Assembly (NCBI GenBank): GCA_963754875.1
Contig: CAVWHO010000017.1
Span: 144,949 to 208,948 of the forward strand
Origin: Nitrospirota bacterium
Lineage (GTDB): Bacteria; Nitrospirota; UBA9217
DNA: 64,000 nt
Direction: 5' to 3'
Below the pieces are notes generated by a model. That model did not search any database and was not told where the DNA came from. It saw nothing but the letters and a program-made list of their open reading frames with translations. Below, piece by piece: positions 17,482 to 64,000 of the stretch. Each line of letters begins with the position of its first letter. Positions within the stretch are counted from its first letter, which is position 1. Position numbers and translations under genes: made by a program.

Positions 17482-18810
17482 ATGTTCACCGAACGACTTG
17501 AAATGAAAACGGCATTGGCAAGCGTCGTCTTTTTCGCCCTAGTATTTTTTTTTAGCGATCATTATTTGTACTACTCTCTCTTAGAAAATTACGACCTCTC
17601 GACTGATGTTTTTGAAAGCTTAACTCTGGAAGGAAATTTAGGAAGACGGCTAGCGTTTGTGGCGCTTGCTTTATTTGCGATTAGCAGTTTATTGGCCAAG
17701 AACCGCCACCGTCTTAAGATTCATGGGGCTCTCGGTTGGATGCTAGCATTATTCTTTCTGTGGTCCCTCATGAGCATTGCCTGGTCCATTGATCCAGGCT
17801 TGACCTTCCGCAGACTCGGGGTCTTCATTATTGTTTGCCTCAGTGCCGTCGCCACGGTCAGACTTATCCCGATCAGTTTTCTTCCATCTTTGGCCTTTTT
17901 CGTTACGGCCTCTTATCTACTGGTAGGACTGATCGTAGAGATAAGCTTGGGGACATTTAGACCAATATCAGAGGGATATCGTTTCGCCGGCACTCTCCAT
18001 CCAAACATGCAGGGCGTTAATTGCGCCATGATGTTACTTTCAGCTACAACCCTGGCTGGCAGTGGTAAAAGCCGAAAAGCCGTTTTTATCCTCGCTGCTT
18101 TTATCGGTTTGCTGGCTTTATGCCTCACCAAGTCCCGGACGGCCTTTGCCGCTATGTTTTTTGCCCTGACCGTGTTCAAAACATTAAGTGGTTCTGCATC
18201 AAAGTGTTTAAAAGTCATCTTGGGTATAATATGGATCTTCTGTTTTTCATATCTCCTCTGGGGAGATGATTTGATTTCGGTCTTGGGAAAATGGGTTTTT
18301 ATGGGGAGAGCGTCCGAAGGTCTGGATACGCTTGCCGGTCGTATGCAAATATATAAACTAAGTCTGGATTACATCGGCCAGCATCCATTTCACGGTTATG
18401 GGTTCGCTAGTTTTTGGGTGCCCCGTCACATCCGTGAGTTTTCGCAAGCGGTAGGAATAGGCATCAACGGCGCCCACTCCATCTATCTTGAACTTTTGCT
18501 CAATGTTGGACTAGTGGGTTGTATCACCTATGTTTTCATTCTCTTTCTAGGGGTTAAGGATGCATTAAGCTACTATAAAAACACTCAAGCTGCCGAATAT
18601 GGCTTTCTATTCATGCTGTTTGTTTTCTCTGTAATGCATGGGATGCTAGAAGGGGCACTAATTCAAGTGTCTTTCGGCTTGTTTCTGTTGATCTGTGGCT
18701 TCTTACACTTAGCCTTCGGGGCTGTGCCAGCAACCATGCAGTTTGAGGGCGAGCTACAAGATAAGAGGGCCGAGTCTTTACCCTTTCCACGGCAGACAAC
18801 ACCAGAATAA
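17482..18810 (+). CDS. O-antigen ligase/Wzy-like polysaccharide polymerase (multi-TM)
   Basis: 442 aa, about 10 predicted TM helices with large loop; position in EPS cluster. Confidence 0.6.
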   Translation: MFTERLEMKTALASVVFFALVFFFSDHYLYYSLLENYDLSTDVFESLTLEGNLGRRLAFVALALFAISSLLAKNRHRLKIHGALGWMLALFFLWSLMSIAWSIDPGLTFRRLGVFIIVCLSAVATVRLIPISFLPSLAFFVTASYLLVGLIVEISLGTFRPISEGYRFAGTLHPNMQGVNCAMMLLSATTLAGSGKSRKAVFILAAFIGLLALCLTKSRTAFAAMFFALTVFKTLSGSASKCLKVILGIIWIFCFSYLLWGDDLISVLGKWVFMGRASEGLDTLAGRMQIYKLSLDYIGQHPFHGYGFASFWVPRHIREFSQAVGIGINGAHSIYLELLLNVGLVGCITYVFILFLGVKDALSYYKNTQAAEYGFLFMLFVFSVMHGMLEGALIQVSFGLFLLICGFLHLAFGAVPATMQFEGELQDKRAESLPFPRQTTPE

Positions 18811-18812
18811 TC

Positions 18813-20282
18813 ATGCACAATATTCTAATAAAAAAAATCCTGCGTGTTTACGAGAATGTATTGTTCAAAAATAGTTCCTGGGGATTAATGTCTCATATCT
18901 CGCAAACAATCCTGGTAAGCTTTTTTTTCATCATCATTGCAAGAATATATTCTACTACTGAATTTGCCAACTACATAATTGCCATTACTATTTACCAGCT
19001 TGTAGCAGCTTTTTCCACTTTCGGACTTAGCCAATGGTTTATTAGGGAATTTGCAGGTACGAGCAACCGAACGGATTTAATAAGTAAATTTTTGAAGATG
19101 CAAATTTATTTTGGGGTTTTTTTTTATGTCATAAATATCATTTTTACACTATTTGTTTATAATGACGGGTTCATCCGCCTATTGGCCGCAATCTGTGGTC
19201 TTAATATTATTTTTGATAATTCAATTAATGCGATAAAATGTTTGAATATTGCAGAATTTCAGCAAACAAGAACATTTAAAATACTTACAGTTGAGGCGTT
19301 TTTAAAGTTAATAACTGGCTGCTTTCTGTTTGCGTATCCATTCTCTATAATCACACTGTCCACCCTTCTAATAATCATACGATTAGTAACCTTAAATATG
19401 TTCTTGACATATGGTTCTTCCAGCCTAATCAGTTTGCATTCTCTTTTGAAGTACAAGTTATCATTTATTGATATACGGCACTTGATCATTTTAAATTGGC
19501 CATTTGTGATTATTGGAAGTGTGTCCATGGTAAATTGGCGCCTTGCAAATATTATAATATCGAAAACATTAACTATTGCCGATATCGCTAATTATGAAAT
19601 ATCTTATAAGGTATTTTCAATAGCTCAATTGTTACCAGTCGTTGTATCCACCACAGTTTATCCGTTGCTAGTAAAATTATATGCAGAGGGAGACATGGAT
19701 AGGTTTCGATCTTTATATAAAATGACTCATTTGTATTATCTATTATTTGGTCTTTTTTCTTACACATTTATTTATACATTTTCAGATTTCCTGATACCGT
19801 TGGCATTTGGTTCAAGATATGTCTTCAGTGCAGTTTATACAAAACAGCTATTCTTAACAATGCTAGTTTTTCCTACAGCTTTTTTACAAGCAAATATCCT
19901 AATTGCTATGAGATATGAAAAAAATGACATGTGGTTAAATATCATTTTACTCTTAGCAAATATTATTATATGTCTTATCGGATTGCATTATATAAAATCA
20001 CTTGCAGTAGTGACTATTTCTATTTTCTTATCTTTTCTTATCTTTCATATTTTGCAAGATATATTTATGATAAAAGTAAACGTCTCGACCATAAGACACG
20101 CCTTCACATTTTATGCTATTAGTTTAGTGGCTGTCATTAGCTATATATTACTATCCAAAGCTTTTGGTTCTTACTTTGCTTTTTTTACCTTTTGGCTCTT
20201 GACATATTATTTCCTGATTCGCTCGAATAAACTTAAGCATCACAATGAAAATATTACTTTTTTAACAATTAAGGATGGATAG
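18813..20282 (+). CDS. Wzx-like polysaccharide flippase (MOP superfamily), AT-rich gene
   Basis: 489 aa, 12-14 hydrophobic segments; first gene of the low-GC cassette. Confidence 0.6.
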   Translation: MHNILIKKILRVYENVLFKNSSWGLMSHISQTILVSFFFIIIARIYSTTEFANYIIAITIYQLVAAFSTFGLSQWFIREFAGTSNRTDLISKFLKMQIYFGVFFYVINIIFTLFVYNDGFIRLLAAICGLNIIFDNSINAIKCLNIAEFQQTRTFKILTVEAFLKLITGCFLFAYPFSIITLSTLLIIIRLVTLNMFLTYGSSSLISLHSLLKYKLSFIDIRHLIILNWPFVIIGSVSMVNWRLANIIISKTLTIADIANYEISYKVFSIAQLLPVVVSTTVYPLLVKLYAEGDMDRFRSLYKMTHLYYLLFGLFSYTFIYTFSDFLIPLAFGSRYVFSAVYTKQLFLTMLVFPTAFLQANILIAMRYEKNDMWLNIILLLANIIICLIGLHYIKSLAVVTISIFLSFLIFHILQDIFMIKVNVSTIRHAFTFYAISLVAVISYILLSKAFGSYFAFFTFWLLTYYFLIRSNKLKHHNENITFLTIKDG

Positions 20283-20386
20283 GATAATGTATAAAATGAT
20301 TTTCCATATTAAATCTAGAGTAATAAAAGTCGCTAATGTGGCAATTGACAAGTGGATAAACTGTATACAATAAGAAGAGAAAATTA

Positions 20387-21343
20387 ATGGCAAGAGCTAA
20401 AAGTGCACTGATTTGCGGAATTTCAGGTCAGGACGGCGCATACCTTTCGCAGTTTCTGTTAAACAAGGGGTATGAAATATATGGTACCTCCCGCGATGCG
20501 CAAATGCAAGCATTTCATAACCTGGCCCGACTCGGAATACGTGATCGCGTAAAAACGGAATCAATGGCATTGAATGACTTCCGAAGTGTCCTCCAGATTG
20601 TTGCCAAAGTCAGGCCGGATGAGATCTATAACCTGGCAGGACAGAGCTCGGTAGGACTTTCCTTTCAGCAACCTATAGAGACACTAGAAAGTATTAGTGG
20701 AGGTACTCTCAATTTGCTTGAAGCAATCCGTTTCATCGACCTTCCCGTCAAATTTTACAATGCTGGCTCTAGTGAAAGTTTTGGGGATACCGGTGGCGCC
20801 TCGGCGGATGAATCCACCCCATTCAGGCCGAGAAGCCCTTATGCAGTGGCAAAGGCGACTTCTTGTTGGGAAGTGTCAAATTACCGAGAGGCTTACGGCC
20901 TCTTTGCCTGTTCTGGAATCCTGTTTAACCATGAGTCTCCCTTACGGCCAGATCGCTTCGTAACAAAAAAAATAACTTCCGCCGTCTGTCGGATCGCTAA
21001 AGGATCAAGGGAAAAACTGAGGTTGGGGGATATTTCAATTTCCAGGGACTGGGGATGGGCCTCGGAATATGTCGAGGCGATGTGGCTTATGCTCCAGCAG
21101 GATCAACCGGATGACTACGTGATAGCCACGGGAGAGGAGCATACCCTGGAAGAGTTCACATCTTTTGCCTTTGGATGCATGGGGATTGACTGGCGCGACT
21201 ATGTGGAAAATGGCCCTGAATTGTATAGACCGACCGAAATCAGGACAAGTCGAGGGAACCCTGAAAAGGCGCTGACTCAGCTGGGCTGGCAGGCTCGTTA
21301 TAAGATGTGCGACATAGTTAAAATGATGTTAATGGAACAGTAA
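20387..21343 (+). CDS. gmd: GDP-mannose 4,6-dehydratase family SDR (Gmd/Rmd-like)
   Basis: ALICGISGQDGAYLSQFLLNKGYEIYG N-terminus; catalytic YAVAKA (YxxxK) motif. Confidence 0.75.
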   Translation: MARAKSALICGISGQDGAYLSQFLLNKGYEIYGTSRDAQMQAFHNLARLGIRDRVKTESMALNDFRSVLQIVAKVRPDEIYNLAGQSSVGLSFQQPIETLESISGGTLNLLEAIRFIDLPVKFYNAGSSESFGDTGGASADESTPFRPRSPYAVAKATSCWEVSNYREAYGLFACSGILFNHESPLRPDRFVTKKITSAVCRIAKGSREKLRLGDISISRDWGWASEYVEAMWLMLQQDQPDDYVIATGEEHTLEEFTSFAFGCMGIDWRDYVENGPELYRPTEIRTSRGNPEKALTQLGWQARYKMCDIVKMMLMEQ

Positions 21344-21438
21344 AGGATGAAGCTGGGCGGAGAATTATAAACCGGTCGCGTTATGCTTACTGGCAGAGAT
21401 TATGAAGGTGATTTCAAGTAAAAAAAAGAGCTGATGAT

Positions 21439-22551
21439 ATGCCAAAATTAAAGAAAAAACTCTGCTGGATAACACCTGATTATTTTTTGTGCGTTGATGC
21501 TTTAATTGTTCCAGAGCTATCTAATGACTATGAGATTGACTGGATTCTTATTAATACACGAAATACAGGAAGAAAATCAGATGGCCTAGTATTTAATACA
21601 TTTAAGCCCAAAGAATATAACCTAAAATATAGACAAAGGGACCCCCGCATAATAATACAATATCTGAGGTTACTAAACAACATCCGGGAATCAGATGCTG
21701 ACTTAATTTATATATCTTTTCACGGTCTGCCATATTTTTTCCCTCTTTTCTTTTTGTTAATAAACCCCAATCGGGTGATTTATGGTGCTCACAATGTTAG
21801 TACTCCAAAAGGGGCGAGTAATGAGTGCCTTATGCGAATATATAATAATTATGTACATAGCAGAATGAAAAAATTTCACGTATTTTCGAAGTCGCAGTTA
21901 ACCATTATTAGAAGACTGCTACCTGATAAAAAATCATATTATGCTCCCTTAGCTCTAGAAGATTATGGATCATCAGCTGTTATTCCACCTGATAATATAA
22001 TAAGGTTTTTATTTTTTGGGTACATTAGAAATTATAAAAGGCTAGATTTATTGATAAATGCTTTTCAGGATTTGTACAAATCCGGAATGCAAAATATTGA
22101 GCTCTATATTGCCGGCAATTGTGAAAATTGGGAATATTATCAATCAATGATTACTATCAGTGAAGGGATTAAAACAAGAATTGAAATTATACCCAATCAT
22201 GATATTCCAGATCTAATATCTTCTTGCCATTATATGGTATTGCCTTACCAGGATATAGCCCAAAGTGCGGTGCTTACATTAGCATATCAATACAATAAGC
22301 CAATAATCGCTTCCGATATTGATCCTTTCAGGGAGTTCATCGTAGATGGATTTACAGGATTCTTTTTTAAAAGACAATCACGGGAAAGTTTATCTTCTGT
22401 TATGAGAGAAGTAATTTTAAAGCATAATGCTAATTACGAAAACATGAGACAAAATATCATGGCTTTTGTAAAGAAAGAGTATTCAATGAGCCAAATAATA
22501 TCTATGTATAAAGCCTTTTTAGATGAATGTATTTCAAGGGAACAGCAATAA
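21439..22551 (+). CDS. glycosyltransferase family 4
   Basis: C-terminal GT4 signature region HYMVLPYQDIAQSAVLTLAYQYNKPIIASDIDPFREFIVDGFTGFFF. Confidence 0.7.
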   Translation: MPKLKKKLCWITPDYFLCVDALIVPELSNDYEIDWILINTRNTGRKSDGLVFNTFKPKEYNLKYRQRDPRIIIQYLRLLNNIRESDADLIYISFHGLPYFFPLFFLLINPNRVIYGAHNVSTPKGASNECLMRIYNNYVHSRMKKFHVFSKSQLTIIRRLLPDKKSYYAPLALEDYGSSAVIPPDNIIRFLFFGYIRNYKRLDLLINAFQDLYKSGMQNIELYIAGNCENWEYYQSMITISEGIKTRIEIIPNHDIPDLISSCHYMVLPYQDIAQSAVLTLAYQYNKPIIASDIDPFREFIVDGFTGFFFKRQSRESLSSVMREVILKHNANYENMRQNIMAFVKKEYSMSQIISMYKAFLDECISREQQ

Positions 22552-22568
22552 AAAAAAATGGGCTCTGT

Positions 22569-23726
22569 ATGAAAAAAATAGGAATATTAACTTATTTAAA
22601 TGAATATGCAAATCTTGGTACTAACATGCAAGCGTATTGCACGTTGGAGGCAATTAAAAAAGAATATCCTGATGCCCAAGTAGAACTAATAAATTATGTG
22701 GGATGGCGGCGGCCAATGAGGCCCTATCTAACGGATATTTCTTTTCATTCGTTTAAAAATGATATTATCAGAATTAAAAAATATAATATTTTTTTTAAAA
22801 ATGAAATTACAACGAGCCGAAACAAATTAATGTCTTCAAACCGTGACAACTCTATTGAGTTTATTAAGAAACAAAACTATGACGCAATATATGTTGGCTC
22901 TGATACGGTGTTGGAATTACAACAGGCCAACAAAGATAACTTGACTGCATACTGGTTAGACAATACGGTTGATAGTCATAAATTTCTTATAGCAGCTTCC
23001 TCTCATAATGTTTATTATGACGCCTTATCTGAAAATCAAAAGAATCTAATTCAGAAAACAATAGATGGATTTTCTTTATTAGGGGTTAGAGATGAGGCTA
23101 CCTTCCGATTGCTATCAAATTTTACGTCGCCAGGAGATAAAAGGTTGCAAATCGTACCAGATCCAACGTTTACCTATGAAATAGATTATAGTATTGCCGA
23201 GCAATATATTAAAAGGAAGAAATTAAATTTTAATAAACCTGTTGTCTGTTTGCATTTATTAAGAAATACAAAATGGGCGTGGGATTTATCGAATTATTTC
23301 AGAAAGTCGGGTTTTATTGTAGTATCGCTTCGTCCTGCTTATTATGCTGATATGATTTTTACAGATTTGTCGCCTTTTGAACAAATGGGAATATATAAAT
23401 ATTTTGACCTCGTCATAACTCATCGATTCCATGATTCCATTTTTTGTATAAAAAATTATACTCCTGTTATTTTCTTTACAGAGAATGTTACTGATGTAAC
23501 GCCAGATCAAGAATCGAAAGCCTTGACGCTATTTAAGTCGTTTAAATTAGACAAATCAAATTACATCGCAAACAAGGATATTTTGACAGCTAAATATTTA
23601 CTTGATATGCAGCAGAAGGCGATAATGAATTTTAAAAATAATGAGGATTTTATTAAATGTGAACTTAAGGTGCAAAAAAATAAATATGAAAACTTTGTAC
23701 AGGAATCTAGAAGAATGTGCATGTAA
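22569..23726 (+). CDS. polysaccharide pyruvyl transferase family protein
   Basis: N-terminus MKKIGILTYLNEYANLGTNMQAYCTL and later DLVITHRFHDSIF are typical of CsaB/WcaK-type pyruvyl transferases. Confidence 0.6.
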   Translation: MKKIGILTYLNEYANLGTNMQAYCTLEAIKKEYPDAQVELINYVGWRRPMRPYLTDISFHSFKNDIIRIKKYNIFFKNEITTSRNKLMSSNRDNSIEFIKKQNYDAIYVGSDTVLELQQANKDNLTAYWLDNTVDSHKFLIAASSHNVYYDALSENQKNLIQKTIDGFSLLGVRDEATFRLLSNFTSPGDKRLQIVPDPTFTYEIDYSIAEQYIKRKKLNFNKPVVCLHLLRNTKWAWDLSNYFRKSGFIVVSLRPAYYADMIFTDLSPFEQMGIYKYFDLVITHRFHDSIFCIKNYTPVIFFTENVTDVTPDQESKALTLFKSFKLDKSNYIANKDILTAKYLLDMQQKAIMNFKNNEDFIKCELKVQKNKYENFVQESRRMCM

Positions 23727-23733
23727 TGATTGC

Positions 23734-23859
23734 ACAACAATGAGATTACGCCCGAGCAAAATAGCTCGGATCGAATATCTACTGAACCGCCGACCAAGGA
23801 GCCTTGGTTACAAAACGCCATTGAAGGTCGCAGCCTCAAGTAATACACTTCGAGTTTGA
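23734..23859 (+). pseudogene. relic of an IS30-family transposase C-terminus (about 40 codons)
   Basis: ...KIARIEYLLNRRPRSLGYKTPLKV matches the characteristic IS30 C-terminal LNxRPRKxLGYKTPxEV tail. No upstream transposase body. Confidence 0.5.
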
Positions 23860-23899
23860 ATTCGCGACCTTACATTTTATCTGGTTATTCCCAAATTCT

Positions 23900-24994
23900 A
23901 TGAAAATTATTATAACCTCACCTTCACTTAAGAAAAATCACAATATAAGTGGCATTTCATCGGTCACACAATTTATTATCAAAAGAAATACGGGAAAGGA
24001 ATATATTCATTTTCAACTGGGCAAAAAAGACTTCGAAAGTCGTAATTTAGGCTGGTTTTTCCGAATTCTGAAAGCATATCTGAAATGGGGTTATTTGATG
24101 CTTACCCAAAAGGATATATTGATACATTTCAATCTCGCCTTTAGCATACTCTCCATATTTCGTGATTCTCCTTTGATTTTATTTGCCCGCTTGTTGCGCA
24201 AACCCATGATTATTCATTTACATGGTGGTGAATATCTCACAGAGAGCAAAATGCCATTATTGATAAAGTATATTTTAAAATGCAGTATGTCGGGCCAAAA
24301 CCCGAAAATTGTCCTAAGTTCTACGGAAAAGAAAATGATCAATCGAAATTTCAGTATTAGTAAAATATTTGTTCTCCCAAATTGCATCGAATTAGAGGAT
24401 GCAGGCAAGTTTCAACGTACTTATACGAAAAACGAGGTGCTCAGACTTCTATTCATGGGCCGTATTGTTGTAAGCAAGGGAATTGAATTAATTTTTCGGG
24501 CACTGGAATGCCTAAAACAGAAAGGCGTTAGATTAAAATTTGTTATAGCAGGCAAAGGCCCTGACGAAAAACTTTATGTCCGTAAATTTAGGGAGTTGTT
24601 AGGCGAGGATTTTGAACATAAGGGCGTTGTATCAGGTGACCAAAAGACAGAATTATTAAGAAATTGCCATGTATTTCTTTTGCCATCATTTTTTGAGGGA
24701 TTGCCAATGGCATTGATCGAGAGCATGTCTTTTGGCTTAGTCCCCGTAACCACGAATGTTGGTTCCATCAAGTATGTAATTAAACATGAGATAAACGGGA
24801 TATTTGTAAATAAGCATTCATCAGCAGAAATAGCATCTGCTATTGAAAAACTTTCTAAAGATAAAGAACATTTGCAAGAATTAAGCAGAAATGCACGACA
24901 ATATATCTTTAGCAACTACAATCCGGACGCCTATATTGCCAGACTAAATGAGATCTACGACGATGAATATAATCATAAATATTCATTCAGTTAA
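23900..24994 (+). CDS. glycosyltransferase family 4
   Basis: FLLPSFFEGLPMALIESMSFGLVPVTTNVGSIKYVIKHEINGIFV is a GT4 E-x7-E-type C-terminal motif. Confidence 0.75.
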   Translation: MKIIITSPSLKKNHNISGISSVTQFIIKRNTGKEYIHFQLGKKDFESRNLGWFFRILKAYLKWGYLMLTQKDILIHFNLAFSILSIFRDSPLILFARLLRKPMIIHLHGGEYLTESKMPLLIKYILKCSMSGQNPKIVLSSTEKKMINRNFSISKIFVLPNCIELEDAGKFQRTYTKNEVLRLLFMGRIVVSKGIELIFRALECLKQKGVRLKFVIAGKGPDEKLYVRKFRELLGEDFEHKGVVSGDQKTELLRNCHVFLLPSFFEGLPMALIESMSFGLVPVTTNVGSIKYVIKHEINGIFVNKHSSAEIASAIEKLSKDKEHLQELSRNARQYIFSNYNPDAYIARLNEIYDDEYNHKYSFS

Positions 24995-25901
24995 TAATAG
25001 TTTATGGTTTGAGACCATAATTTGTTTCTTAAAATCAAAGTATGCATTGATACCTGTAGAAACTTTGCATGAAATCTACCTGGGACGAATATATATAAAA
25101 AACTCATGTCATATTACTGTAGATGACGGCAATAAATCATTTTACGATGTAATTTTCCCCGTATTAAAAAAACATCATGTCCCGGCCTCTGTCTATGTAT
25201 CTCCCAAGATATGTAAAGAAAAAAGCAATTATTGGTTTCAGGAAATACAAGGATATGACCAAATTGAGTTAAAGCGGATCATTGCCGATATGTCGAATTG
25301 CTCATATAATTACCTTCTCAAGTATAGTGCAGAAGGGATATTGAAGACCTTTCCAGTTTACCAGATTCATGAAATAATAATGAGATACCGAAAAATAACT
25401 GATACTGAAAAAAAAGTATTTCAGAATCTGACGGTAAACAACCTTAAAGAGATCGATCAATCCGGTTTGGTGACAATTGGGTCGCACACTATCAACCACC
25501 CAATATTAACAAATGAAGATGATGCAAGCAGCAAATATGAAATAGTTGAATCTGTACGCGAATTATCAACCCTATTAAGCCGAGAAATAAAATATTTTGC
25601 ATATCCTAATGGCATACCTATCCTGGATTTTACAGAACGAGAGATGAATTATCTAAACAATATTGGTATTCAATTAGCTTTTACGACAGAGTCAAAAAAT
25701 ATCTCCTCCTTTGACAACCCAATGGGTATCCCCAGAATAGGAATATCGGATGGTGAAAGTTTGTCTTTTTTTAAAAGTAAATTATTTTTAGCTTCTTTTT
25801 GGAACACCTTTAAAAGGTTGAACCCGACAGGTGAATATAGAGAAAGAAAGGAATTACGCCGGTTTTTTCAGTCGGGAACACGCATGGATTATATTTCATG
25901 A
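24963..25901 (+). CDS. polysaccharide deacetylase (NodB homology domain)
   Basis: HITVDDGNKSFYDVIFPVL (motif 1 DD), GSHTINHPIL (motif 3). Confidence 0.7.
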   Translation: MNIIINIHSVNNSLWFETIICFLKSKYALIPVETLHEIYLGRIYIKNSCHITVDDGNKSFYDVIFPVLKKHHVPASVYVSPKICKEKSNYWFQEIQGYDQIELKRIIADMSNCSYNYLLKYSAEGILKTFPVYQIHEIIMRYRKITDTEKKVFQNLTVNNLKEIDQSGLVTIGSHTINHPILTNEDDASSKYEIVESVRELSTLLSREIKYFAYPNGIPILDFTEREMNYLNNIGIQLAFTTESKNISSFDNPMGIPRIGISDGESLSFFKSKLFLASFWNTFKRLNPTGEYRERKELRRFFQSGTRMDYIS

Positions 25902-26704
25902 ACGTCCAAAAACCTTTTCCATTACCTCATCGTACTATCCTTGGAATGCGGCTCGATGCGGCTAGCAATGCAGATGCAACTCGCATTATTTTAAAGTCGG
26001 CAAAGGAAAAAGTGCGCGGCTATGTTTGTGCAGCAAATGTGCACATGGTCATGGAATCGCACGATGAGGAGGCATTTCAAAGGATTGTGAACGGTGCCGT
26101 TTTAGTCATTCCGGACGGCATGCCTTTGGTTTGGGGTTTACGCTTTTTAGGGGTAAGAAAAGCTACTCACATTCGCGGCTACGATCTTACCGTGGATCTT
26201 CTCGAAGCGTCAGCACGAGAAGGCGTGACGGTCGGATTTTACGGCGGAAGCATCGAAGTTTTGAATAAGCTGCTGCAGGCTTCCCAAAAGAGATTCTCAC
26301 AACTTAAAGCAGTCTATTCATATAGCCCACCGTTCCGCCAGATGTCACATGAGGAAGATGAGCGTATAATTACGGAGATCAATGACTCAGGAGTGAACAT
26401 TCTCTTTGTCGGACTTGGATGTCCCAAGCAAGAGCGATGGATGGCAGAGCATGCTGGCCGTATCGACGCGATTATGATCGGCGTCGGTGCTGCGTTTGAT
26501 TTTTTAGGAGGCTCAAAGCCCCAAGCTCCTCGTTGGATGATGTCTGCAGGGCTTGAATGGTTATTTCGCTTGGTTATAGAGCCGCGAAGACTTTGGCGAA
26601 GATACTGTATTTATAATGCTCGATTTATAGTTTTATTTATTATGCAGTTGCTCAGCAATTACTACAGCATTGCCCGGCAAAAAATTTTTAAATGCATGGG
26701 CTGA
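25898..26704 (+). CDS. WecB/TagA/CpsF-family glycosyltransferase (GT26)
   Basis: VCAANVHMVMESHDEEAFQRIVNGAVLVIPDGMPLVWG ... LFVGLGCPKQERWMAEHAG matches the GT26 family pattern. Start overlaps previous stop. Confidence 0.8.
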   Translation: MNVQKPFPLPHRTILGMRLDAASNADATRIILKSAKEKVRGYVCAANVHMVMESHDEEAFQRIVNGAVLVIPDGMPLVWGLRFLGVRKATHIRGYDLTVDLLEASAREGVTVGFYGGSIEVLNKLLQASQKRFSQLKAVYSYSPPFRQMSHEEDERIITEINDSGVNILFVGLGCPKQERWMAEHAGRIDAIMIGVGAAFDFLGGSKPQAPRWMMSAGLEWLFRLVIEPRRLWRRYCIYNARFIVLFIMQLLSNYYSIARQKIFKCMG

Positions 26705-31062: not shown

Positions 31063-32282
31063 CTCAGTACGAAGCGCTTCACGGAAAGCCTCTTGCTGCT
31101 GTAAAGCGCTGGGGCAAGTCTCATGCACTCCCCAAACTGGTTTTTTGCCCCGTCTGCAATGCCCCGCACGACTATCTCTACTACAACGACGGTAAGAAAA
31201 AATCTCAGATCAGGTGCAAGGTCTGTGGTCACTTGTTTCAAGCCGACCAGAGATTCCGTAAAAACGATAAGTCAAAATACTTTTGCCCCTACTGCAACCA
31301 CGCTCTCTTTCGTTGGAAAATGCGGAAAGAGGTTACGCTTTACAAATGCCCCAACGATGACTGCCAGCACCGCGTCCAGGCCATCGCAAAACTTAATCCG
31401 GCTGAGCGTGCATTACAGAAGAAACGAAGCTCGCAGTTCAAGCTCTGCTACCAGTACCGGGAGTATCATTACAAACCCCAAGAGCTTCTTCACTCTGAGC
31501 CCGAAAAGCCGATCGTCGAGCTTACGAAGATCCATAACTCCGAGAACGTCCTCGGCCTGATCCTTGCCTTTTATGTTTCCTTCGCCGTTCCAGCCAGGAA
31601 AACCGCGGCTATTTTGAAGTCCGTCTTCAATATCAAAGTCTCTTATCAGACGGTCCTAAATTATGCGGCAGCCGCAGCGTTTTACTGCCACAGCTACAAT
31701 CTCCAGCGTAAAGGCCCGATCGATTCTATTCAGGCTGGCGATGAAACGTATATCAGGGTCCTGGGGAAGCATCAATACGTCTTTTTCTTCATCTCATCCA
31801 AGAGCCTGAAAATCACCGCCTACCATGTTGCCGATAACCGGGGAACGCAACCAGCAATCATCGCCATGAACGAAGCGATCCGTACCGCAGCTCCCGGTCA
31901 GGAGATTATCCTCGTGACCGACGGCAATCCTTCCTACCCAGCCGGCATCCATTTTCTGAATGCTCAGGAAGGCGATGATCCCGATATCCAGCACCACAAG
32001 GTCATCGGCCTCCAAAACCTCGATGCCGAGTCAACGGAATGGAGGGCGTTTAAACAGCTCATCGAGCGCTTGAATAGGACCTACAAGTATCACGTGAGGC
32101 CTGCGGCCGGTTTCAACAGTAACAACGGCTCCGTGGTCCTGACGACGCTCTTTGTGACCCATTACAACTTTCTCCGCCCTCACATGTCATTGAACTACAA
32201 GCCACCCGTTCAATTGCCGGAGCTCCAGGCCATTACCACGCTTCAGGGCAAATGGGCGAAGATTCTTTCTCTCGCTGCTTAA
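31020..32282 (+). CDS. DDE transposase with N-terminal double CxxC zinc ribbon; the frame is open from 30954 but lacks an ATG before 31233 (TTG), suggesting -1 frameshift fusion to ORF1 at the A8C run or a homopolymer indel
   Basis: CPVCNAPHDYLYYNDGKKKSQIRCKVCGH and CPYCNHALFRWKMRKEVTLYKCPNDDCQH zinc ribbons; DDE candidates in IQAGDETYIRV, ILVTDGNPSYPA and LIERLNRTYKYHVRP. Confidence 0.7.
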   Translation, partial: RKKTQETKDYNQLLAQYEALHGKPLAAVKRWGKSHALPKLVFCPVCNAPHDYLYYNDGKKKSQIRCKVCGHLFQADQRFRKNDKSKYFCPYCNHALFRWKMRKEVTLYKCPNDDCQHRVQAIAKLNPAERALQKKRSSQFKLCYQYREYHYKPQELLHSEPEKPIVELTKIHNSENVLGLILAFYVSFAVPARKTAAILKSVFNIKVSYQTVLNYAAAAAFYCHSYNLQRKGPIDSIQAGDETYIRVLGKHQYVFFFISSKSLKITAYHVADNRGTQPAIIAMNEAIRTAAPGQEIILVTDGNPSYPAGIHFLNAQEGDDPDIQHHKVIGLQNLDAESTEWRAFKQLIERLNRTYKYHVRPAAGFNSNNGSVVLTTLFVTHYNFLRPHMSLNYKPPVQLPELQAITTLQGKWAKILSLAA

Positions 32283-32813: not shown

Positions 32814-34334
32814 TTGTGGGGCTTATTCTCTATCCTCGCTGGTTGCAGCAGCCAGAATCCACAGTCGAATTTCAATCCCGATACGGGAAGACATGTGTCC
32901 TCCGACTGGCTTCCTGCGGGCCACATGACGGCGGCGACGGCGGACATCGCCTCCTGCATCCAATGTCATGGCGCGGATCTCGCCGGAGGCATTTCTCGCA
33001 TCTCATGCACGTCGTGCCATATGGGAAGCCCAACGTCCGTCCATCCGGCAAACTGGGTTCCCCTGTTCAGAACGCATGGGCCCTACGCGACGCTGAACGG
33101 GACCGTCGCCTGTGCGAACCAGTATTGCCACGGACCTACGCTTGCCGGCGTTGCCGGCAGCGGACCGTCCTGCACGAGCTGCCACGGTCTTCCCTTCGAC
33201 CCGACAGTGCTCGTTTGCGGAGACTGCCACAAACAGCAGATGGGCACGCGGAGACCGGTGGTGGGACCAAATGGAGATTTCGGCCAAAACGCAGCGATTC
33301 TGTCTCATCATGTCACGGGAACGGCTGATCCCACGCCCAACCAGTGTCGGGTCTGCCATGACATGTCTGAGCACATGTCCGGCACGGTCCGTCTGCGGAA
33401 CGCCGATACAGGAGCGACCATTGTCTACAGCATAGCCGCTCCCAGCACACTCAAGCCCTTCTGCTTGAGCTGTCACGACGCGAGTGGCGCGCTCGCGACC
33501 GCGGTCATGAGCGGTACGCCCTCAGCGCCATTCAACGACGGTTCAAGACTGGGAACCCCGCCATATCCCTTTGCCACCAGGATCTATTCAAGCTGGAACG
33601 GCACATACGGCCACGGCACGAATGGGAACCACGCACCCGGATCGAGGCTTACCTGTCTAGGCACAGGCCAGCCCGGCACCGGCTGTCATGGAAATGGCCA
33701 AAGCATCAATGCACACGGGTCTGTAAACCAGGTGTTGGCGACGAGGGAATTTAAATATGATATTGCTTCCTCGGGCCCGATGTATACTTATGATGAGGCG
33801 CATTTTGACCTGTGCTTCAATTGTCATGAAAGCTATCCTCTTGTCTCGAAGACGGAAATCTTTGGGGTGAAGTTCGGCGGGTTACTGGACACTGCTTACG
33901 GTCCTCTCGGACCACGCGGTCAGAATCCACCCTATGATACTGGTGGACTCTTCCTTACGCACTTTGCTGACCATGACGATCTCTTGAATCCCTCTAATCC
34001 CCTGAATGATCCGGCCTTTTGGGGTACGACGAACATGAACCTTCACTGGTTCCATATAGGAGGGCAGACAGCCTCATTCCGCGGGACCGGTGCTACAACC
34101 GGCATCAACTGCGTCAACTGTCATGATGTTCATGGTTCGAGTGATCCCTACGGTGCAGTTTATGATGAGCTGGCATATAGCAATACGACGACTCTTGGGA
34201 ACAATGTGAGCGGAGAGATGGTATATTCAGCATATACGACTACCTTGTTGGAAGGTTATCCCACTTATTGTTCCTTCAACTGTCACTTTTTGCAGGGTCC
34301 GACAAAGGCGTGGTTTTCCCCGATTGTTGAGTAG
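32814..34334 (+). CDS. lipoprotein multihaem cytochrome c (7 CxxCH plus CX3CH, CX4CH and CX9CH variants)
   Basis: Lipobox LAGC-SS. Haem motifs CIQCH, CTSCH (x2), CGDCH, CRVCH, CLSCH, CFNCH, CVNCH, CSFNCH, CANQYCH. True start probably ATG 32794 in another frame (MMYRRLF...), implying a 1-nt indel near 32805-32815. Confidence 0.85.
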   Translation: MWGLFSILAGCSSQNPQSNFNPDTGRHVSSDWLPAGHMTAATADIASCIQCHGADLAGGISRISCTSCHMGSPTSVHPANWVPLFRTHGPYATLNGTVACANQYCHGPTLAGVAGSGPSCTSCHGLPFDPTVLVCGDCHKQQMGTRRPVVGPNGDFGQNAAILSHHVTGTADPTPNQCRVCHDMSEHMSGTVRLRNADTGATIVYSIAAPSTLKPFCLSCHDASGALATAVMSGTPSAPFNDGSRLGTPPYPFATRIYSSWNGTYGHGTNGNHAPGSRLTCLGTGQPGTGCHGNGQSINAHGSVNQVLATREFKYDIASSGPMYTYDEAHFDLCFNCHESYPLVSKTEIFGVKFGGLLDTAYGPLGPRGQNPPYDTGGLFLTHFADHDDLLNPSNPLNDPAFWGTTNMNLHWFHIGGQTASFRGTGATTGINCVNCHDVHGSSDPYGAVYDELAYSNTTTLGNNVSGEMVYSAYTTTLLEGYPTYCSFNCHFLQGPTKAWFSPIVE

Positions 34335-45394: not shown

Positions 45395-46015
45395 ACGTCT
45401 CCTCTTTGCAGTCTTGAATCAGCATGAATGAACCACGAATGTCGGTTGTCAGTGTTGTTGTTTCAGATGGACAGTGCAATGGGTGAGTTAAACAGGATGA
45501 ATGGTACCTTAAATCGTGGCAAATGACAATCGGGGAATTCCTTAGTATTGCTTTTTAAACGTTTCCCGTTCGACTTTTTCCGTCGGTTCATTCTGCTTTC
45601 ATCTATGCCTCATATGATATGATACCTCTTGCAAAAATTTAGTCAAGACCGCATCGAAGGTCCTCCACACCGTACCGTTATCCACTGCAACATGCCGGGG
45701 CTTTTATTTTGACAGCGCTCCCTTTTTTTGCTAAAGTTCCTGCATGACGCGCCACTCCTCAGAGAACATGCCCGTACTGTTTACCCGTTCAAAAACGCTG
45801 GCGTTCTCTATCACGATGGTGAAGTCGCATAACCTCAAGCGGCAATGAAAAGAGGGGGATGTTCAAAGCAGACCAGGACCGTATCTGAGAGGTGACCCAT
45901 GCAGGAGGAACAGAAGCACATACCCGGATCGGTCTGAGCGCCGTCGAGCGGCACCGGGGGGTGTTGCCAGGCGGGTCAGCAGCCGGGGCTGCAACCGGAA
46001 GAGATCAGGAGCGCG

Positions 46016-46723
46016 GTGCGGACCAAATATTCCGAGGTGGCCCAGTCGGCCTCCGGGAAATTCTCCTACCCCACGGGCCGGGAGGGCGCATGTGCGCTCG
46101 GCTATGATCCCGCACTCATCGACGCCGCCCTTCCCAGCCTGCTCGAATCCTTCTGCGGTGTGGGCAATCCCTTTTCCCTGTTCCCGATCCAGCCCGGATC
46201 GGTCATCCTCGATGTCGGATGCGGCGCGGGTTTCGATCTCTCCGTCGCGGCGCGGCTGACCGGTCCCGAAGGCATGGTGCACGGGGTCGATCTGACCGAG
46301 GCCATGGCGGCACGGGCGCGTGAGAACCTTCACAAGGCAGGCATTGCGAATGTCCGCGTGCAGCAGGTGGGGTCGGAGAGCCTGCCGTTTAAAGACAACA
46401 CCTTTGATGCGGTCATTTCGAACGGCGTGATCAATCTCTCGCCTGACAAAGAGACCCTGTTCTGCGAGATCAACCGGGTGCTGAAACCGGGGGGCTGGTT
46501 CGGCTTCGCCGATGTGGTGCTGGAGAAGGAACTGCCCCAGGGCATGGCAGGCAGTGCCGAAGCGTGGTCGCAATGAATCGGCGGCGCGGTCCCGGTCGGG
46601 GACCATCTCCTGGCGCTCCGGCGGGCGGGCTTTGCAGACATCCTGTTCACCGGCATGACGGGTTTCCGAACTTCTCCCTACACCGAAGGCGCGCTCTTCA
46701 GAGCCAGGAAGAAAGCGGCGTGA
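46016..46723 (+). CDS. arsM: ArsM/UbiE-type SAM-dependent methyltransferase, candidate selenoprotein: in-frame TGA (46574-46576) at the conserved Cys position. Possible 5' extension to ATG 45899 through another in-frame TGA.
   Basis: ILDVGCGAGFD, VHGVDLTEAM, VISNGVINLSPDK, LKPGGWFGFADVVLEKELP, then AEAWSQ-TGA-IGGAVPVGDHLLALRRAGFADILFTG continues in the same frame to TGA 46721-46723. Confidence 0.65.
46577..46604 (+). promoter_or_regulatory. candidate bacterial SECIS element: 11-nt spacer after UGA, then hairpin GGUCCC-GGUC(G)-GGGACC
   Basis: Spacer AUCGGCGGCGC (11 nt), then 6-bp stem with GGUC-containing apical loop at 46588..46604. Spacing and loop resemble the E. coli fdhF SECIS. Confidence 0.5.
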
Positions 46724-46992
46724 TACAGGAGCGACGGGCGGAGCAACTGACTCTCTTCTTTGATCTTTCCCGCATTTGAATCTATCAATGGTCGAGAAGT
46801 GCCTCCGGTCCTCCTCTCGTCTTCCTGAACCCCATTCGGACAAGCCGGAACCAACGGCAGAAAACAAAAGCATCTCACGCAAAGCCGGACCCTGCCCCGG
46901 CATTTCTTTGCGTGCTTGGCGTCTTTGGGCGAAAATTTTTTTCAGTTTTGGGTAGAATTTTACTTATACGTCCCTGATTCCCGGAGCGATAG

Positions 46993-51320: not shown

Positions 51321-51656
51321 GGCGGGACAAAAGAGAAGGACGGTGGCCCGTTGCACGTCCTCGGGCCTTCCAGTCCCGCATGACCCGCCTCCCTCCGCAG
51401 AGATTAGACCAATGCCTTCACGCCGTTAAAGAGGACCCGCTCTCGCTCTGCTCGTCTGAAATGGTGAGGTTACAACGGGCTCTTGGCACGAAGCGCTCAA
51501 CGCACAAAATTCGTTCCATGATTTATTACCTTTGGCAAAGCAATGCGTGAATATGGTAATATATATCCTCCTGAGGCCCAACGACAGTGCCTTTTTGGAA
51601 AATTCTAAAGAAAGACACAACGACCGGGAGGGCCGCCCTTTTATGGTGACGTTTCC

Positions 51657-52358
51657 GTGCTGCGATCATTGAGTACTGTGGGGTCTCAGGACCGTCATCA
51701 CCATCCCGCGCTCCTCCTTGACACCATGCGATCGAACAATCCGAAAAATCGCCGTCTGAAGCGATTGCCGCAACACCGGCACAGCAGCGTGGAGGTCGAC
51801 GTCGAGTCGCTCCGGTCGCTCGAGAACCGCTGCAACGGCTGCGTCAAGGGAGAACGGTGCTGCTGCTCGTCGTACGAGGTCTGCGTTACCACCGCGGAGT
51901 TGAAGAGGATCATCAAGGTCCTGCCCGAGGCCGCCAAGTTCTGCCCCCATCTCCTGGCCGCAGGAGGATACGACAACGTGTTCGAGGAAGAAGAGCCTGG
52001 GCTTTTTTCCATTGACACGACGGAGGACGGCCTCTGCCTCTTTGCCTACTGGTCCCAGCACCGGGTCCATTGCTCCCTGCACACCGTCGCAACGACACTC
52101 GGCCTGCCCCTGGCGCACGTGAAGCCGAAGGTCTGCCTGCTCTGGCCCCTGCACTTTTCAGAAGGCAACGAGGTCCTGGCCGTGATCAACGATGCATTTC
52201 TGTTCAACTGCAATGCCCGGAAAGCGCCGGGTTCGCGCAGTCTGAGCCCCGGCTTTGCCGAGGCGATTGAACTGGTGTACGGCAAAGGCTGCGGGACCCA
52301 GGTGAAGCAGGCGGCAGAGAACGGGGATCGGCGAACGCTGCTGGTCATCCGGCGGTGA
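51657..52358 (+). CDS. Cys-rich protein with CxxCx6CCC motif (YkgJ/UPF0153-like putative Fe-S/zinc-binding domain), tentative
   Basis: CNGCVKGERCCCSSYEVC. Confidence 0.5.
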   Translation: MLRSLSTVGSQDRHHHPALLLDTMRSNNPKNRRLKRLPQHRHSSVEVDVESLRSLENRCNGCVKGERCCCSSYEVCVTTAELKRIIKVLPEAAKFCPHLLAAGGYDNVFEEEEPGLFSIDTTEDGLCLFAYWSQHRVHCSLHTVATTLGLPLAHVKPKVCLLWPLHFSEGNEVLAVINDAFLFNCNARKAPGSRSLSPGFAEAIELVYGKGCGTQVKQAAENGDRRTLLVIRR

Positions 52359-52463
52359 GCAGGCTTGCCACCGGGAAATAAGCCTCACGGGGCCGCGGAG
52401 AAGCACTACGTGCTCTCTCCCGCGGAGTGAAGTCAACAACTTCATTCACGGTAAGGCGGTTCC

Positions 52464-61416: not shown

Positions 61417-61669
61417 ATCATCATTACGGAGGCACAGCCTGCATTCGCGCGACGCGCTCATAAACGCTGGCCGCAGGCTGAGGCACGGAGAAAGAGAAAT
61501 GTCCAAAGGTTGGCTCCGATTTCTTGCAGCGCACGCTACGCACGCAGAGCGTGTAAGATCCGAAATGAAAATTAAAGATTAAGCTTTGCGGCCTTCGCGC
61601 CTTTGCAAGAAGAAGTCTTTTCTCTGTGTTCTCAGTGGATACTGTTTTGAAGATATCGTGAGGTGGACA

Positions 61670-64000
61670 ATGCAAAAGGACGACAAAGAACTCTACTTCG
61701 CGCAGAACATGCCCGTGCCGGAAACACCGCTGCCTGCTCGCGGCGTGAAACCGTGGCAACTAACAAAGGTAGTGGGCAAACCATTGCCGCGCGTGGATGC
61801 GTACGAGCGTGTGAGCGGGAATGCGGTCTATCCCTCGGACGTGCTTCTGTCCGACATGCTCTATGCCGCCATTCTTCGCTGCCCCCACCCCCATGCCGTT
61901 GTGAAGGACGTTGATACGAAAGAGGCGGAAAAGATGATCGGCGTCCGTGCCGTGCTGACAGATGCGAGCAAGGAAGCCGACGTCCTGTGGCCCTGGTCGC
62001 CGGATGTGAAGACCAGGCTCTTTGATCCGGAGTGCCGCTTCGAAGGCGAGGTTGTTGCCGCAGTGGCTGCAGAGACCTTGTACCAGGCATGGGATGCGGT
62101 TCGTGCCATCAAGGTGAAGTACGAAGTCCTGCCTTTCGTGTCCGATGAGCGAAGATCACTCGATGCAGGGGCAGCGCAGGTCCACACAACAGGGAATAAG
62201 ATCAAAACGGACAAGTACGAGCGCGGCGACGTGGCAAAGGGCTTTGCTGAGGCAGATGTGGTGCTTGAACAGACCTACCGGAACGAGTGCGAGCTCCATA
62301 CTCCCCAGGAGCTGCATGGCGGCGTGGCAAAGTGGGACGGCGATAGCCTCACGATCTGGGAGTCCACGCAGGGGGTGTTTGCGGTCCAGGCCCGGGTCGC
62401 TGAAGTGCTGCGTCTGCCGCTTTCGAAGGTACGCGTGATCGGGCATTATATGGGAGGCGGCTTCGGCAGCAAGCTGCAGGCCGACAAAGCAACCATCATC
62501 GCGGCATTGCTCGCCAGGAAGACCGCCCGTCCGGTCAAGATGGTCCTGTCGCGCGAAGAGACCTTTCTTGCCGTGGGCAACCGGCCTCCGGGCACGCATG
62601 AAACTGAAAGCAGGAGTGAAGAAGGACGGTACGCTGACCGCCCTCGAGTTCAGCGGCATCGGCGAGCAGCGGCGCCTATCCCGCAGGCGGCACGGCGCTC
62701 ATGGACTGGCTGGTGCGCGATCTTTACCTCTGCCCGAACGTGCGCACCGAGACCACGGACGTGTACATCAACGCCGGACCTGCGCGGCCTTTCCGCGCGC
62801 CGGGCCATCCGCAGGGCGCGTGGGCGCTTGAGCAGATGCTCGATAGCCTGGCCGAGGCGATCAAGATGGATCCTGTCGAGCTCCGGCTCAAGAATATCCC
62901 TACCTTCAGCCAGGCGCGGCCGGGCAATCCTCCCTATACCACGACCGGTCTTCGGGAGTGCCTTGAAAAAGGCGCAGAGGCCTTCGGATGGAAGGAAGCG
63001 CGGAAAAGAACCGCTTTGAGACTCCGGCGACCGGCCATATCAGAAGAGGGGTGGGCATGGCCGCCGGCCTCTGGGTTGCCGGCGGGGGCAATCCCCCTTC
63101 CACGGTGATCGTGAAGCTCTTCTCCGACGGCAGCGCAAATCTCAATATGGGCGCGAGCGACATCGGCACGGGCACGAAGACCGTCATGGCCATGGTCGTT
63201 GCCGAGGAACTGGGCGTAAAGCCCGAAGCGCTCCAGATCGAGAATGCCGACACGGGCACGACGCAGTACGCAACGCCGAGCGGCGGCAGCAAGACCGTGC
63301 CCACGGAAGCGCCGACAGTGCGCGCTGCCGCGCTCAGCGTAAAACAGCAGCTCCTTGAGCTGGCGGCCCAGGACCTGAAAGCCGAGTGCCGGGGACCTGG
63401 AGCTGCATCGGGGATGAGGTCGTGTCTACTCTGGACCCGTCGAAAAAGATCAAGATCATCGAGTGTTACCGGGTCTCAAGAAGCGCGGGGTGATCGTGGG
63501 CGTCGGATACCGCGGCCCGAACCCCGAGGGCAAGGTGGTGAACCCCTTTGCAGCCCAGTTCTGCGAGGTCGAGGTGAACATGAGGACCGGCGAGGTCAGG
63601 ATCATCCGGTTCCTGGCAGCCCACGACAGCGGAAGGGTGATGAACCGGCTGACCTTCGACAACCAGGTCTTCGGCGGCATCGTCATGGGCATCGGCTTCG
63701 GTATGACCGAGGCGCAGGATCCTGGACAAGAACCAGACCGGCAAGATGGTGAACAAGAACTGGCACGATTACAAAGTGCCGACGATGCTCGATGTTCCCG
63801 CGGACATGACGTCGCTGCCGATCGAAGTTCCGGACAACGAGGCCAATATCGCGGGTGCAAAGGGCCTGGGCGAACCCGTCACGATACCGACGGCAGCGGC
63901 CATTGCGAATGCCGTGTATCACGCAACGGGCGTACGCGTGACCGAAACGCCCATGAGCCTGTTGCGGCTTGCGAAGATGTTTGCGGAAGCGAAGAAGTAA
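61670..64000 (+). CDS. molybdopterin-binding large subunit of the Mo-hydroxylase (CoxL/PaoC-like), interrupted by at least seven frameshifts in G/C homopolymers; stop TAA is the last codon of the window
   Basis: The homologous reading frame jumps between ORFs 61586.., 62568.., 62701.., 62988.., 63746.. and untabulated segments (...TFLAVGNRPP / ARMKLKAGVKKDGTLTALEFSGIG / SSGAYPAGGTALMDWLVRDL / KNRFETPATGHIRRGVGMAAGLW / DLELHRG / EVVSTLDPSKK / VIVGVGYRGPNPEGKVVNPF / ILDKNQTGKMVNKNWHDYKVPTMLDVP). Confidence 0.75.

Follow-up and report, generated by a model that had tools for sequence, protein, structure and literature searches.

An ArsM-like methyltransferase gene of a Nitrospirota bacterium with two in-frame UGA codons that are very probably read as selenocysteine

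A methyltransferase frame interrupted by two TGA codons

A methyltransferase-like reading frame at positions 45899–46723 of a 64,000-nucleotide stretch of contig CAVWHO010000017.1 from a Nitrospirota bacterium (the whole stretch of DNA analyzed here, referred to below as the window) runs through two TGA codons on the forward strand before it reaches a third. The locus raises the question of whether the internal codons are stops, errors or sites at which selenocysteine (Sec) is inserted, and what kind of enzyme the gene encodes. A sequence-only reading of this DNA had suggested a candidate selenoprotein related to the arsenite methyltransferase ArsM. The comparative data presented here make it very probable that the gene for an ArsM-like enzyme is real and that both in-frame UGAs are read as Sec, each with its own hairpin after it. 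The frame is translated as that reading claimed, with TGAs at 45935–45937, 46574–46576 and 46721–46723: it reads MQEEQKHIPGSV-TGA-APSSGTGGCCQ... at the N-terminus, holds ILDVGCGAGFD and VISNGVINLSPDK in its methyltransferase core, and ends as ...AEAWSQ-TGA-IGGAVPVGDHLLALRRAGFADILFTGMTGFRTSPYTEGALFRARKKAA-TGA. In a mechanical list of open reading frames (ORFs), the gene region appears only as GTG 46016..46576 (186 aa). The parts of the gene, including the selenocysteine insertion sequence (SECIS) elements and the S-adenosylmethionine (SAM)-binding motif, are as follows:

45899..46723 (+): complete coding sequence of the predicted two-Sec ArsM-like methyltransferase, 274 residues and a stop codon (translation, family matches and homologs)
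45887..45895 (+): Shine-Dalgarno-like GAGAGGTGA, 3 nt 5′ of ATG 45899 (read from sequence)
45935..45937 (+): first Sec codon UGA, residue U13, motif U-[PA]-P (TGA conservation and open linker)
45948..45967 (+): SECIS-1, 8-bp stem GCGGCACC/GGUGUUGC, loop GGGG, 18 nt from UGA to loop
46154..46156 (+): Cys86 codon in FCGVGNP, invariant in 81/81 alignment rows, two residues ahead of the canonical ArsM Cys72 column
46205..46237 (+): SAM-binding motif ILDVGCGAGFD (Pfam Methyltransf_31, _11 and _25)
46424..46426 (+): Gly176 codon (ISNGVINL), at the As-binding Cys174 position of CmArsM
46574..46576 (+): second Sec codon UGA, residue U226, motif U-I-G-G (i.e., UxxG), at the As-binding Cys224 position (TGA conservation)
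46588..46604 (+): SECIS-2, 6-bp stem GGUCCC/GGGACC, loop GGUCG, beginning 11 nt past the UGA, 17 nt from UGA to loop
46721..46723 (+): true stop codon TGA (homologs have TAA or TAG there)

Conservation of the TGA codons

A search of 5.8 billion proteins returned dozens of homologs (63–100% identity) that each cover exactly 79% of the query and stop at the same residue as the window ORF. Homologs covering 99% (~50–60% identity) lie on 1–2 kb contigs and carry Trp at both TGA positions; because their DNA has TGA at both sites, the Trp residues are an artefact of gene calling with genetic code 4. The same pair of TGAs is found in a homolog of 85% identity that lies on a 2.57-Mb contig. Public records of the Sec members are ~186–204 residues long and truncated at both ends, and GenBank describes relatives as short proteins, either “hypothetical” or “methyltransferase domain-containing”.

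A scan of one genome per species gave 512 relatives, the best 80 of which were aligned. These are metagenome-assembled genomes (51–81% identity) of Nitrospirota/Thermodesulfovibrionales and Desulfobulbales/Thermodesulfobacteriota, together with one bin each of Brocadia, Eisenbacteria and Geobacter. All 81 aligned rows have TGA in the U226 column, and 71 of the 81 have it in the U13 column (71/72 when only rows with the N-terminal extension are considered). Nine of the ten non-TGA rows at U13 have no usable residue (eight without extension or aligned residue, including one cut by a contig end, plus locus L084), and the remaining one has Ser (TCG, locus L009). The apparent Cys of L084 in this column was rejected, as it sits in the 5′ untranslated region, 5′ of the real start.

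The third TGA (46721) behaves differently from the other two: 41 of 79 homologs end there with TAA or TAG, and the window’s clade has no conserved tail beyond it. Hence 46721–46723 is the true stop, and a third Sec at this position is ruled out. Elsewhere in the window TGA serves as an ordinary stop, as had been noted from the sequence, and since it ends 11 of the 24 other window genes, genome-wide reassignment of TGA is excluded.

Two groups of relatives show features of their own near the end of the gene. The sequence past the terminal TGA is conserved at the nucleotide level in four Desulfobulbales loci (L035, L036, L044 and L050; …RFFLSFLS…SLHLRN…), but the similarity runs on across true stop codons, so this stretch does not encode a tail of the protein and would instead be a conserved downstream element or an opposite-strand gene. 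Three other loci (L020, L022 and L030) share a C-terminal extension of ~25–30 residues (…KSGWIS[KR][IV]F[GS]LF[SP]GNS…) without Sec, hydrophobic or amphipathic in appearance, which the window protein does not have.

Coding past each TGA and the start site

The 48 codons 3′ of U226 are conserved as protein. Relative to the window, 51% of substitutions past U226 fall at codon position 3, as do 55% in the 45 codons upstream, and F245, G252, T254, T262, A265, F267 and K271 are invariant. This position-3 bias and the invariant residues bear out the proposal that the C-terminal frame beyond 46576 is coding.

At the other end of the gene, a start codon lies 8–20 codons ahead of the U13 TGA in 66 of 68 distinct loci (exactly 13 in 43), and 51 of the 68 have a Shine-Dalgarno-like motif ahead of that start. 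The linker from U13 to the core varies in length (16–47 codons), and its 2207 codons contain no in-frame stops vs 32 and 102 in the other frames, because of which an independent leader ORF is rejected. The sequence-only reading had offered two starts, ATG 45899 with two Sec codons and GTG 46016 with one; the conserved start spacing, the Shine-Dalgarno motif and the open linker decide for the former. The N-terminal motif takes the form U-[PA]-P-x-x-G-[AT]-G-[GS]-[CRH]-[RQ]. Its GG[CRH][RQ] stretch largely overlaps the SECIS-1 stem-loop, and the conservation of this stretch may reflect RNA rather than protein constraint.

SECIS hairpins after both UGA codons

Published bacterial SECIS (bSECIS) elements have an apical loop of 3–9 nt, a stem of 4–16 bp, a G in the first two loop positions, 16–37 nt from the UGA to the loop, and a minimum free energy (MFE) of ≤ −7.5 kcal/mol. 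SECIS-1 and SECIS-2 agree with this description in every respect. SECIS-1, the stronger hairpin, had been overlooked in the sequence-only reading (hairpin MFE −12.2 kcal/mol; 46-nt context −24.4 kcal/mol, z = −2.87). SECIS-2 (hairpin MFE −11.2 kcal/mol) is the GGUCCC/GGGACC hairpin reported there 11 nt past the second TGA, and it is present at 46588–46604 with loop GGUCG. Its 11-nt spacer and GGUC-containing loop are presumably like those of the Escherichia coli fdhF SECIS.

The proposed role of SECIS-2 agrees with its conservation, with compensatory changes, across genomes. When 76 distinct sequences are aligned without gaps, 97.8% of cells are paired, and compensatory changes occur at 4 of 6 pairs (36 cells). 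Covariation is 0.264 vs 0.152 in shuffles (0/500 shuffles reach the observed value), and controls with the register slid along the alignment give at most 72% paired. One pair alternates between G-C and A-U, coupling the first position of a Val/Ile codon to a synonymous third position in an Asp codon; at another pair, C-G and U-A alternate.

The hairpin following U13 occurs in two registers in different clades. In the Desulfobulbales-type stem, which has a GGUC loop, 92% of cells are paired and 5 of 6 pairs show compensatory changes (37 cells); the Nitrospirota-type stem (29 sequences, window included) is 83% paired, with compensatory changes at 5 of 7. As an unbiased control, the 30-nt stretch after each UGA was compared with all in-frame 30-nt segments of the same gene. 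In the window gene, the stretch after U13 ranks among the most stable 2.8% and that after U226 among the most stable 1.6%. Across 68 loci, 51% (U13) and 85% (U226) of these stretches fall in the top decile, where chance predicts 10%. Like the consensus bSECIS, both window elements are hairpins in the coding region just 3′ of a UGA with a G-rich apical loop; they differ from it in that the U13 element takes two registers by clade and in that neither matches an Rfam family. Rfam searches of the whole window at gathering thresholds, and of 45850–46800 at permissive E-values, gave only chance microRNA and long noncoding RNA matches.

Protein family and fold

Four lines of evidence (Pfam, NCBIfam, a sequence search of the PDB, and Foldseek) support the ArsM-like methyltransferase identity that was first suggested from motifs. 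Pfam recognizes generic SAM-methyltransferase domains, and D105, G107, G109, G111 and D113 of the SAM motif are invariant in the homolog alignment. The best NCBIfam match is NF047649, “methyltransferase/UXPK-star double selenoprotein” (283.4 bits vs a cut-off of 460), followed by NF041537, “arsenite methyltransferase/AhpD domain selenoprotein” (281.6 vs 510), NF041536, “arsenite methyltransferase/DUF2284 domain selenoprotein” (259.5 vs 575), and, in fourth place, PRK11873, the ArsM subfamily (192.8 vs 263). The first three cover profile positions 11–250, which is the methyltransferase part only, with position 11 aligned to residue 34. Relatives score 188–210 bits against PRK11873, and the single-Sec sister and Desulfobulbales forms are all below every NCBIfam cut-off.

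By sequence (phmmer) and by fold (Foldseek), the closest solved structures are CmArsM, CrArsM and human AS3MT (27–30% identity, TM-score 0.55–0.69; top Foldseek matches 6cx6, 5evj, 8xt7 and 4fr0). The fold search used an AlphaFold2 model with a mean predicted local distance difference test (pLDDT) score of 86.9, in which residues 1–30 are of low confidence. Pfam, Foldseek and phmmer agree on a fold of the class I SAM-methyltransferase type, with an N-terminal lid like that of ArsM.

Active-site columns compared with canonical ArsM

U226 aligns with the As-binding Cys224 of CmArsM and with the matching Cys of CrArsM (phmmer), a position beside the SAM pocket. The internal TGA thus stands exactly at the As-binding Cys, as the sequence-only reading had it. 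The motif given there for the canonical Cys (...YVGC[IV]AGA) has to be corrected to ..GEC[LI]GGA / ..GC[VI]AGA, with UxxG as the selenoprotein motif. Gly176 aligns with the As-binding Cys174 (“visnCvcnls” of CmArsM) and is Gly in 81/81 rows, so that the Gly remarked upon in ISNGVINL, where ArsM has Cys, is seen in both the translation and the CmArsM alignment. Cys72 of the canonical F-[YW]-G-C-G loop aligns with Val88, and the invariant Cys86 lies two residues earlier (F-C-G-V-G vs FYGCG). The aligned region has no conserved Cys for Cys44, the disulfide-cascade partner. C174A and C224A variants of CmArsM are each inactive on As(III) and methylarsenite, MAs(III), C72 of CmArsM, the third As(III) ligand, is required for the first methylation only, and Cys174 is essential in both CmArsM and AS3MT. 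The invariance of Gly176 and the alteration of the Cys72 column are in keeping with the earlier suspicion that this is not a standard arsenite methyltransferase.

A profile search of 1.84 billion cluster representatives places these columns in a wider context. At E ≤ 1e-30, 1731 representatives were retained, and the top 150 were tabulated. Among these 150, 41 are full-length with Cys at columns 176 and 226, plus a Cys at the canonical column 88; 26 have Cys226 together with Gly176, and most of these have no Cys at 86 or 88; and 41 end exactly at 226 and represent Sec forms, 39 of them with Gly176. These counts tie Sec226 to a large Gly176 clade that has Cys226 members and is without the canonical triad. 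Single-Sec sister forms lacking the N-terminal arm also exist. The orthologs with Cys at the TGA positions that the sequence-only reading had looked to as a check were thus found for position 226 (solved ArsMs, the 26 Gly176-type and the 41 canonical representatives); position 13 gave none, and because its sole non-TGA case is Ser, U13 has no Sec/Cys pair.

Compared with canonical ArsM/AS3MT enzymes (CmArsM 4FS8/6CX6, CrArsM 5EVJ and human AS3MT 8XT7), the window protein hence shares the fold and the SAM motif and keeps the nucleophile of the Cys224 column, as Sec. In contrast, where these enzymes have Cys174, Cys72 and Cys44, the window protein has Gly, Val and no conserved counterpart. It is also without the C-terminal domain of the eukaryotic ArsM/AS3MT proteins (~380 residues).

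Proposed mechanism and candidate substrate

We propose that SelB, Sec-tRNA and the two SECIS elements would insert Sec at codons 13 and 226. Sec226 would then act as the catalytic, substrate-binding nucleophile that holds a soft metalloid beside the methyl group of SAM. Cys86, which is in the lid loop, and Sec13, carried by an N-terminal arm that is flexible and of low model confidence (Met-x12-Sec-Pro-Pro), may supply the second and third soft ligands; both are put forward as replacement ligands because Cys174 has become Gly and the Cys72 column Val. Together, Sec226, Cys86 and Sec13 would form a chelate with a soft metalloid. As(III) is the most likely candidate and, by homology, the inferred default substrate. 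Alternatively, Cys86 and Sec13 might resolve an Se-S or Se-Se bond formed during turnover, in the manner of the Cys44-Cys72 disulfide cascade of ArsM. In either role the N-terminal Sec arm could be a functional analogue of the C-terminal Sec tails or fused Sec domains of curated multi-Sec ArsM-type proteins.

A bolder and more tentative possibility, which we regard as rather unlikely, is that the Gly176 clade forms a separate enzyme class. Its site would have been rebuilt from Sec226, Sec13 and Cys86 to give an Se-Se(-S) chelate or a selenenyl-selenide couple, its substrate would perhaps not be arsenite, and its Sec arm would be an independently evolved equivalent of the UXPK-star tail. If true, this would be a new selenoprotein architecture, widespread in anaerobic Nitrospirota and Desulfobulbales.

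Alternative explanations

That the locus is a pseudogene, or that its TGAs are sequencing or assembly errors for TGC/TGT or TGG, might be suggested by gene callers that report only the 186-aa ORF and by the short “hypothetical” or “methyltransferase domain-containing” labels of GenBank relatives. The comparative data effectively refute this explanation and leave it a negligible probability: TGA stands at both positions in independent assemblies from ~70–80 species of several phyla, the frame is intact and evolves as coding sequence past each TGA, and covarying hairpins follow both. Equally negligible is the idea that TGA has been reassigned to Trp or Gly (genetic codes 4 or 25) with no Sec involved. 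Some metagenome pipelines do give Trp at both sites, but these calls come from 1–2 kb contigs whose DNA reads TGA; moreover, TGA ends 11 of 24 well-supported window genes at family-consistent positions, the Cys224 column is Cys rather than Trp in solved homologs and in the 26 Gly176-type representatives, and SECIS hairpins occur specifically after these two TGAs. An explanation that we consider improbable, if less so than these two, is that Sec is encoded by the second TGA alone, in which case the leading 12 codons and the TGA after them would form a leader ORF or untranslated sequence, with a protein start further downstream (e.g., GTG 46016). Nine related loci lack the N-terminal extension, U13 has no Cys counterpart, the NCBIfam models begin past this region (profile position 11 = residue 34), and residues 1–30 have low pLDDT. 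Nonetheless, all members of the clade that has the extension keep the first TGA in frame with the core (no linker stops vs 32 and 102), ATG and Shine-Dalgarno motif keep a fixed distance from it (13 codons in 43/68 loci), and both a covarying hairpin conforming to bSECIS and the conserved U-[PA]-P follow directly.

A different matter is whether arsenic is the substrate. There is a real possibility, if one we still hold to be doubtful, that the protein is a genuine selenoprotein acting on something else, such as Se, Te or Sb species, Hg or a partner thiol or selenol, or that Sec226 is a covalent nucleophile. Two As(III) ligands are missing in register (Cys174 to Gly and the Cys72 column to Val), C174A abolishes CmArsM activity, the score lies under the ArsM subfamily cut-off (192.8 vs 263), the gene has neither ars genes nor a conserved neighbor beside it, and the closest NCBI model is named only “methyltransferase/UXPK-star”. 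On the other hand, every one of the nearest solved structures, by fold and by sequence, is an As(III) methyltransferase, the names of two of the three closest curated models describe arsenite methyltransferase fusions, and Sec13, Cys86 and Sec226 could rebuild a three-ligand site for a soft metalloid.

Several observations weigh against the interpretation of the gene as a two-Sec enzyme with a rebuilt metalloid site. SECIS-2 is no more stable than shuffled sequence in its GC-rich context (z = +1.49 over 57 nt and +0.16 over 37 nt), so that its significance comes from the cross-genome comparison and its stability alone is unexceptional. The sequences used for the U13 hairpin were sorted beforehand into groups by fit, which inflates their percentages of paired cells. 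On the protein side, the essential ligand Cys174 is replaced by Gly, and the arm that would bring U13 near C86 and U226 is modelled at low confidence. The search for a Cys form at position 13 found none, with the Gly176/Cys226 representatives lacking the arm and L009 having Ser. NCBIfam/Pfam annotation of 20 window ORFs revealed neither ars genes such as arsR, acr3/arsB or arsC nor selA, selB or selD in the 64 kb, and among ORFs clustered within ±5 kb of the gene no neighbor family occurs in more than 8 of 77 loci. Run on the window, ARAGORN detected no tRNA at all, and on 60 related loci it detected no tRNA-Sec; tblastn with an E. coli SelD query did not find SelD in ~850 kb of window and loci.

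Relation to known selenoproteins

ArsM-type selenoproteins have been known since 2007 and are curated by NCBI, and the central idea of the sequence-only reading is therefore of a known kind. The reviews PMC13188914 and PMC9312934 list an arsenite methyltransferase selenoprotein with a UxxG Sec, crediting Fomenko et al. 2007. According to PMC13188914, Haft & Tolstoy 2025 added three multi-Sec ArsM-type families. A 2026 review lists both the UxxG selenoprotein and the multi-Sec ArsM-type families, which provides precedent for the window protein.

The window protein shares with the arsenite methyltransferase selenoprotein of the PRK11873/NF008823 type an ArsM fold and a UxxG Sec at the Cys224 column (Cys206 of human AS3MT). 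This relative is listed with a single Sec, whereas the window protein adds Sec13 with a SECIS of its own, has Gly at the Cys174 column, and stays below the PRK11873 cut-off (192.8 vs 263). NF047649 likewise has the UxxG Sec in its methyltransferase core (U-I-G-G, residues 226–229 of the window protein). Its second Sec is on a C-terminal extension (U-x-P-K-stop), in contrast to the N-terminal second Sec of the window protein (U-[PA]-P). The corresponding 33-position UXPK-stop tail (profile positions 251–283) is unmatched, the window protein ending in ..RKKAA-stop. NF041537 and NF041536 also share a related methyltransferase domain and the UxxG Sec; they are fusions (345 and 459 profile positions, respectively) with a further Sec in or near the fused domain, whereas the window protein is unfused. 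A stand-alone form with an N-terminal Sec and its own SECIS appears to be undescribed, though Haft & Tolstoy 2025 may mention one. Neither the invariant loss of Cys174 nor the breadth of the family in anaerobic Nitrospirota and Desulfobulbales appears to be covered in curated models or the accessible literature.

The ArsM-like family is widespread (512 relatives in the species scan and 1731 cluster representatives at E ≤ 1e-30) yet its Sec-containing members are systematically mis-annotated, and because the family also falls below NCBIfam cut-offs, arsM surveys of sulfate-reducing and Nitrospirota populations miss or mis-score it. The enzyme retains one canonical arsenic ligand, as Sec, and gains a second Sec 13 residues from its N-terminus. 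This leads to testable alternatives, in which Se-based ligands stand in for the Cys triad of ArsM or another soft metalloid is the substrate. A Sec codon at position 13, with a SECIS ~10 nt later, would also be a natural case of SelB-dependent decoding near an initiation site.

Among the Gly176/Cys226 representatives, P0131 ends in …SPQSGCSP, a possible Cys counterpart of the U-x-P-K-stop Sec tail of NF047649.

Genomic context and other features of the window

Two further elements lie on either side of the methyltransferase gene:

45709..45737 (+): promoter-like site TTGACA-17 nt-TAAAGT, with TG ahead of the −10 hexamer (consensus scan, weak)
46884..46901 (+): terminator-like hairpin followed by a T-rich tract (consensus scan, weak)

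Because of these two elements, 45899–46723 may tentatively be regarded as monocistronic. Neighboring genes encode a LuxR-type response regulator, a POT peptide transporter, a hybrid-cluster protein, a Tag glycosylase, a GGDEF-EAL protein and a SulP transporter. The neighbors that recur across the 77 loci (P-type ATPase, PEPCK, MCP and PAS kinase) are unrelated. A 346-codon antisense ORF rich in Arg, Gly and Pro (45863–46903, reverse strand) spans the methyltransferase gene; all homology is on the forward strand, and the antisense ORF is most likely a GC-rich artefact.

Other window genes interrupted by TGA were considered as selenoprotein candidates and rejected (51426–52445, reverse strand; 179–1150, forward strand; 7092–7766, reverse strand), being antisense, low-complexity or a fragment of a group II intron maturase. 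The ORF at 179–1150 (+) looks, from its translation, like the C-terminal end of a reverse transcriptase/maturase of the group II intron type (…LAKKLRLTVNKEKSAVDRPWNRKFLGYT…), with a TGA at 455 interrupting the upstream sequence, and is probably a fragment at the window edge. Two forward-strand ORFs in different frames, 61586–63019 and 62988–63752, both match the molybdenum-binding subunit of the xanthine dehydrogenase/4-hydroxybenzoyl-CoA reductase family (profile positions ~1–272 and ~418–555 of ~750), and the gene continues beyond the window end. This arrangement points to a gene that is split or frameshifted, or to a misassembly near 63000.

A low-GC block at ~18000–26700 (32–40% vs ~49% for the window) consists of consecutive forward-strand ORFs and adjoins genes for a Wzz/GNVR chain-length determinant (11486–13012) and an initiating sugar transferase (15847–17283); it is probably a horizontally acquired island for polysaccharide biosynthesis. 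A DDE-type transposase (DDE_Tnp_IS240 / rve_3) is encoded at 31233–32282 (+), followed at 32814–34334 by a multihaem cytochrome with an MtrC/MtrF-like domain.

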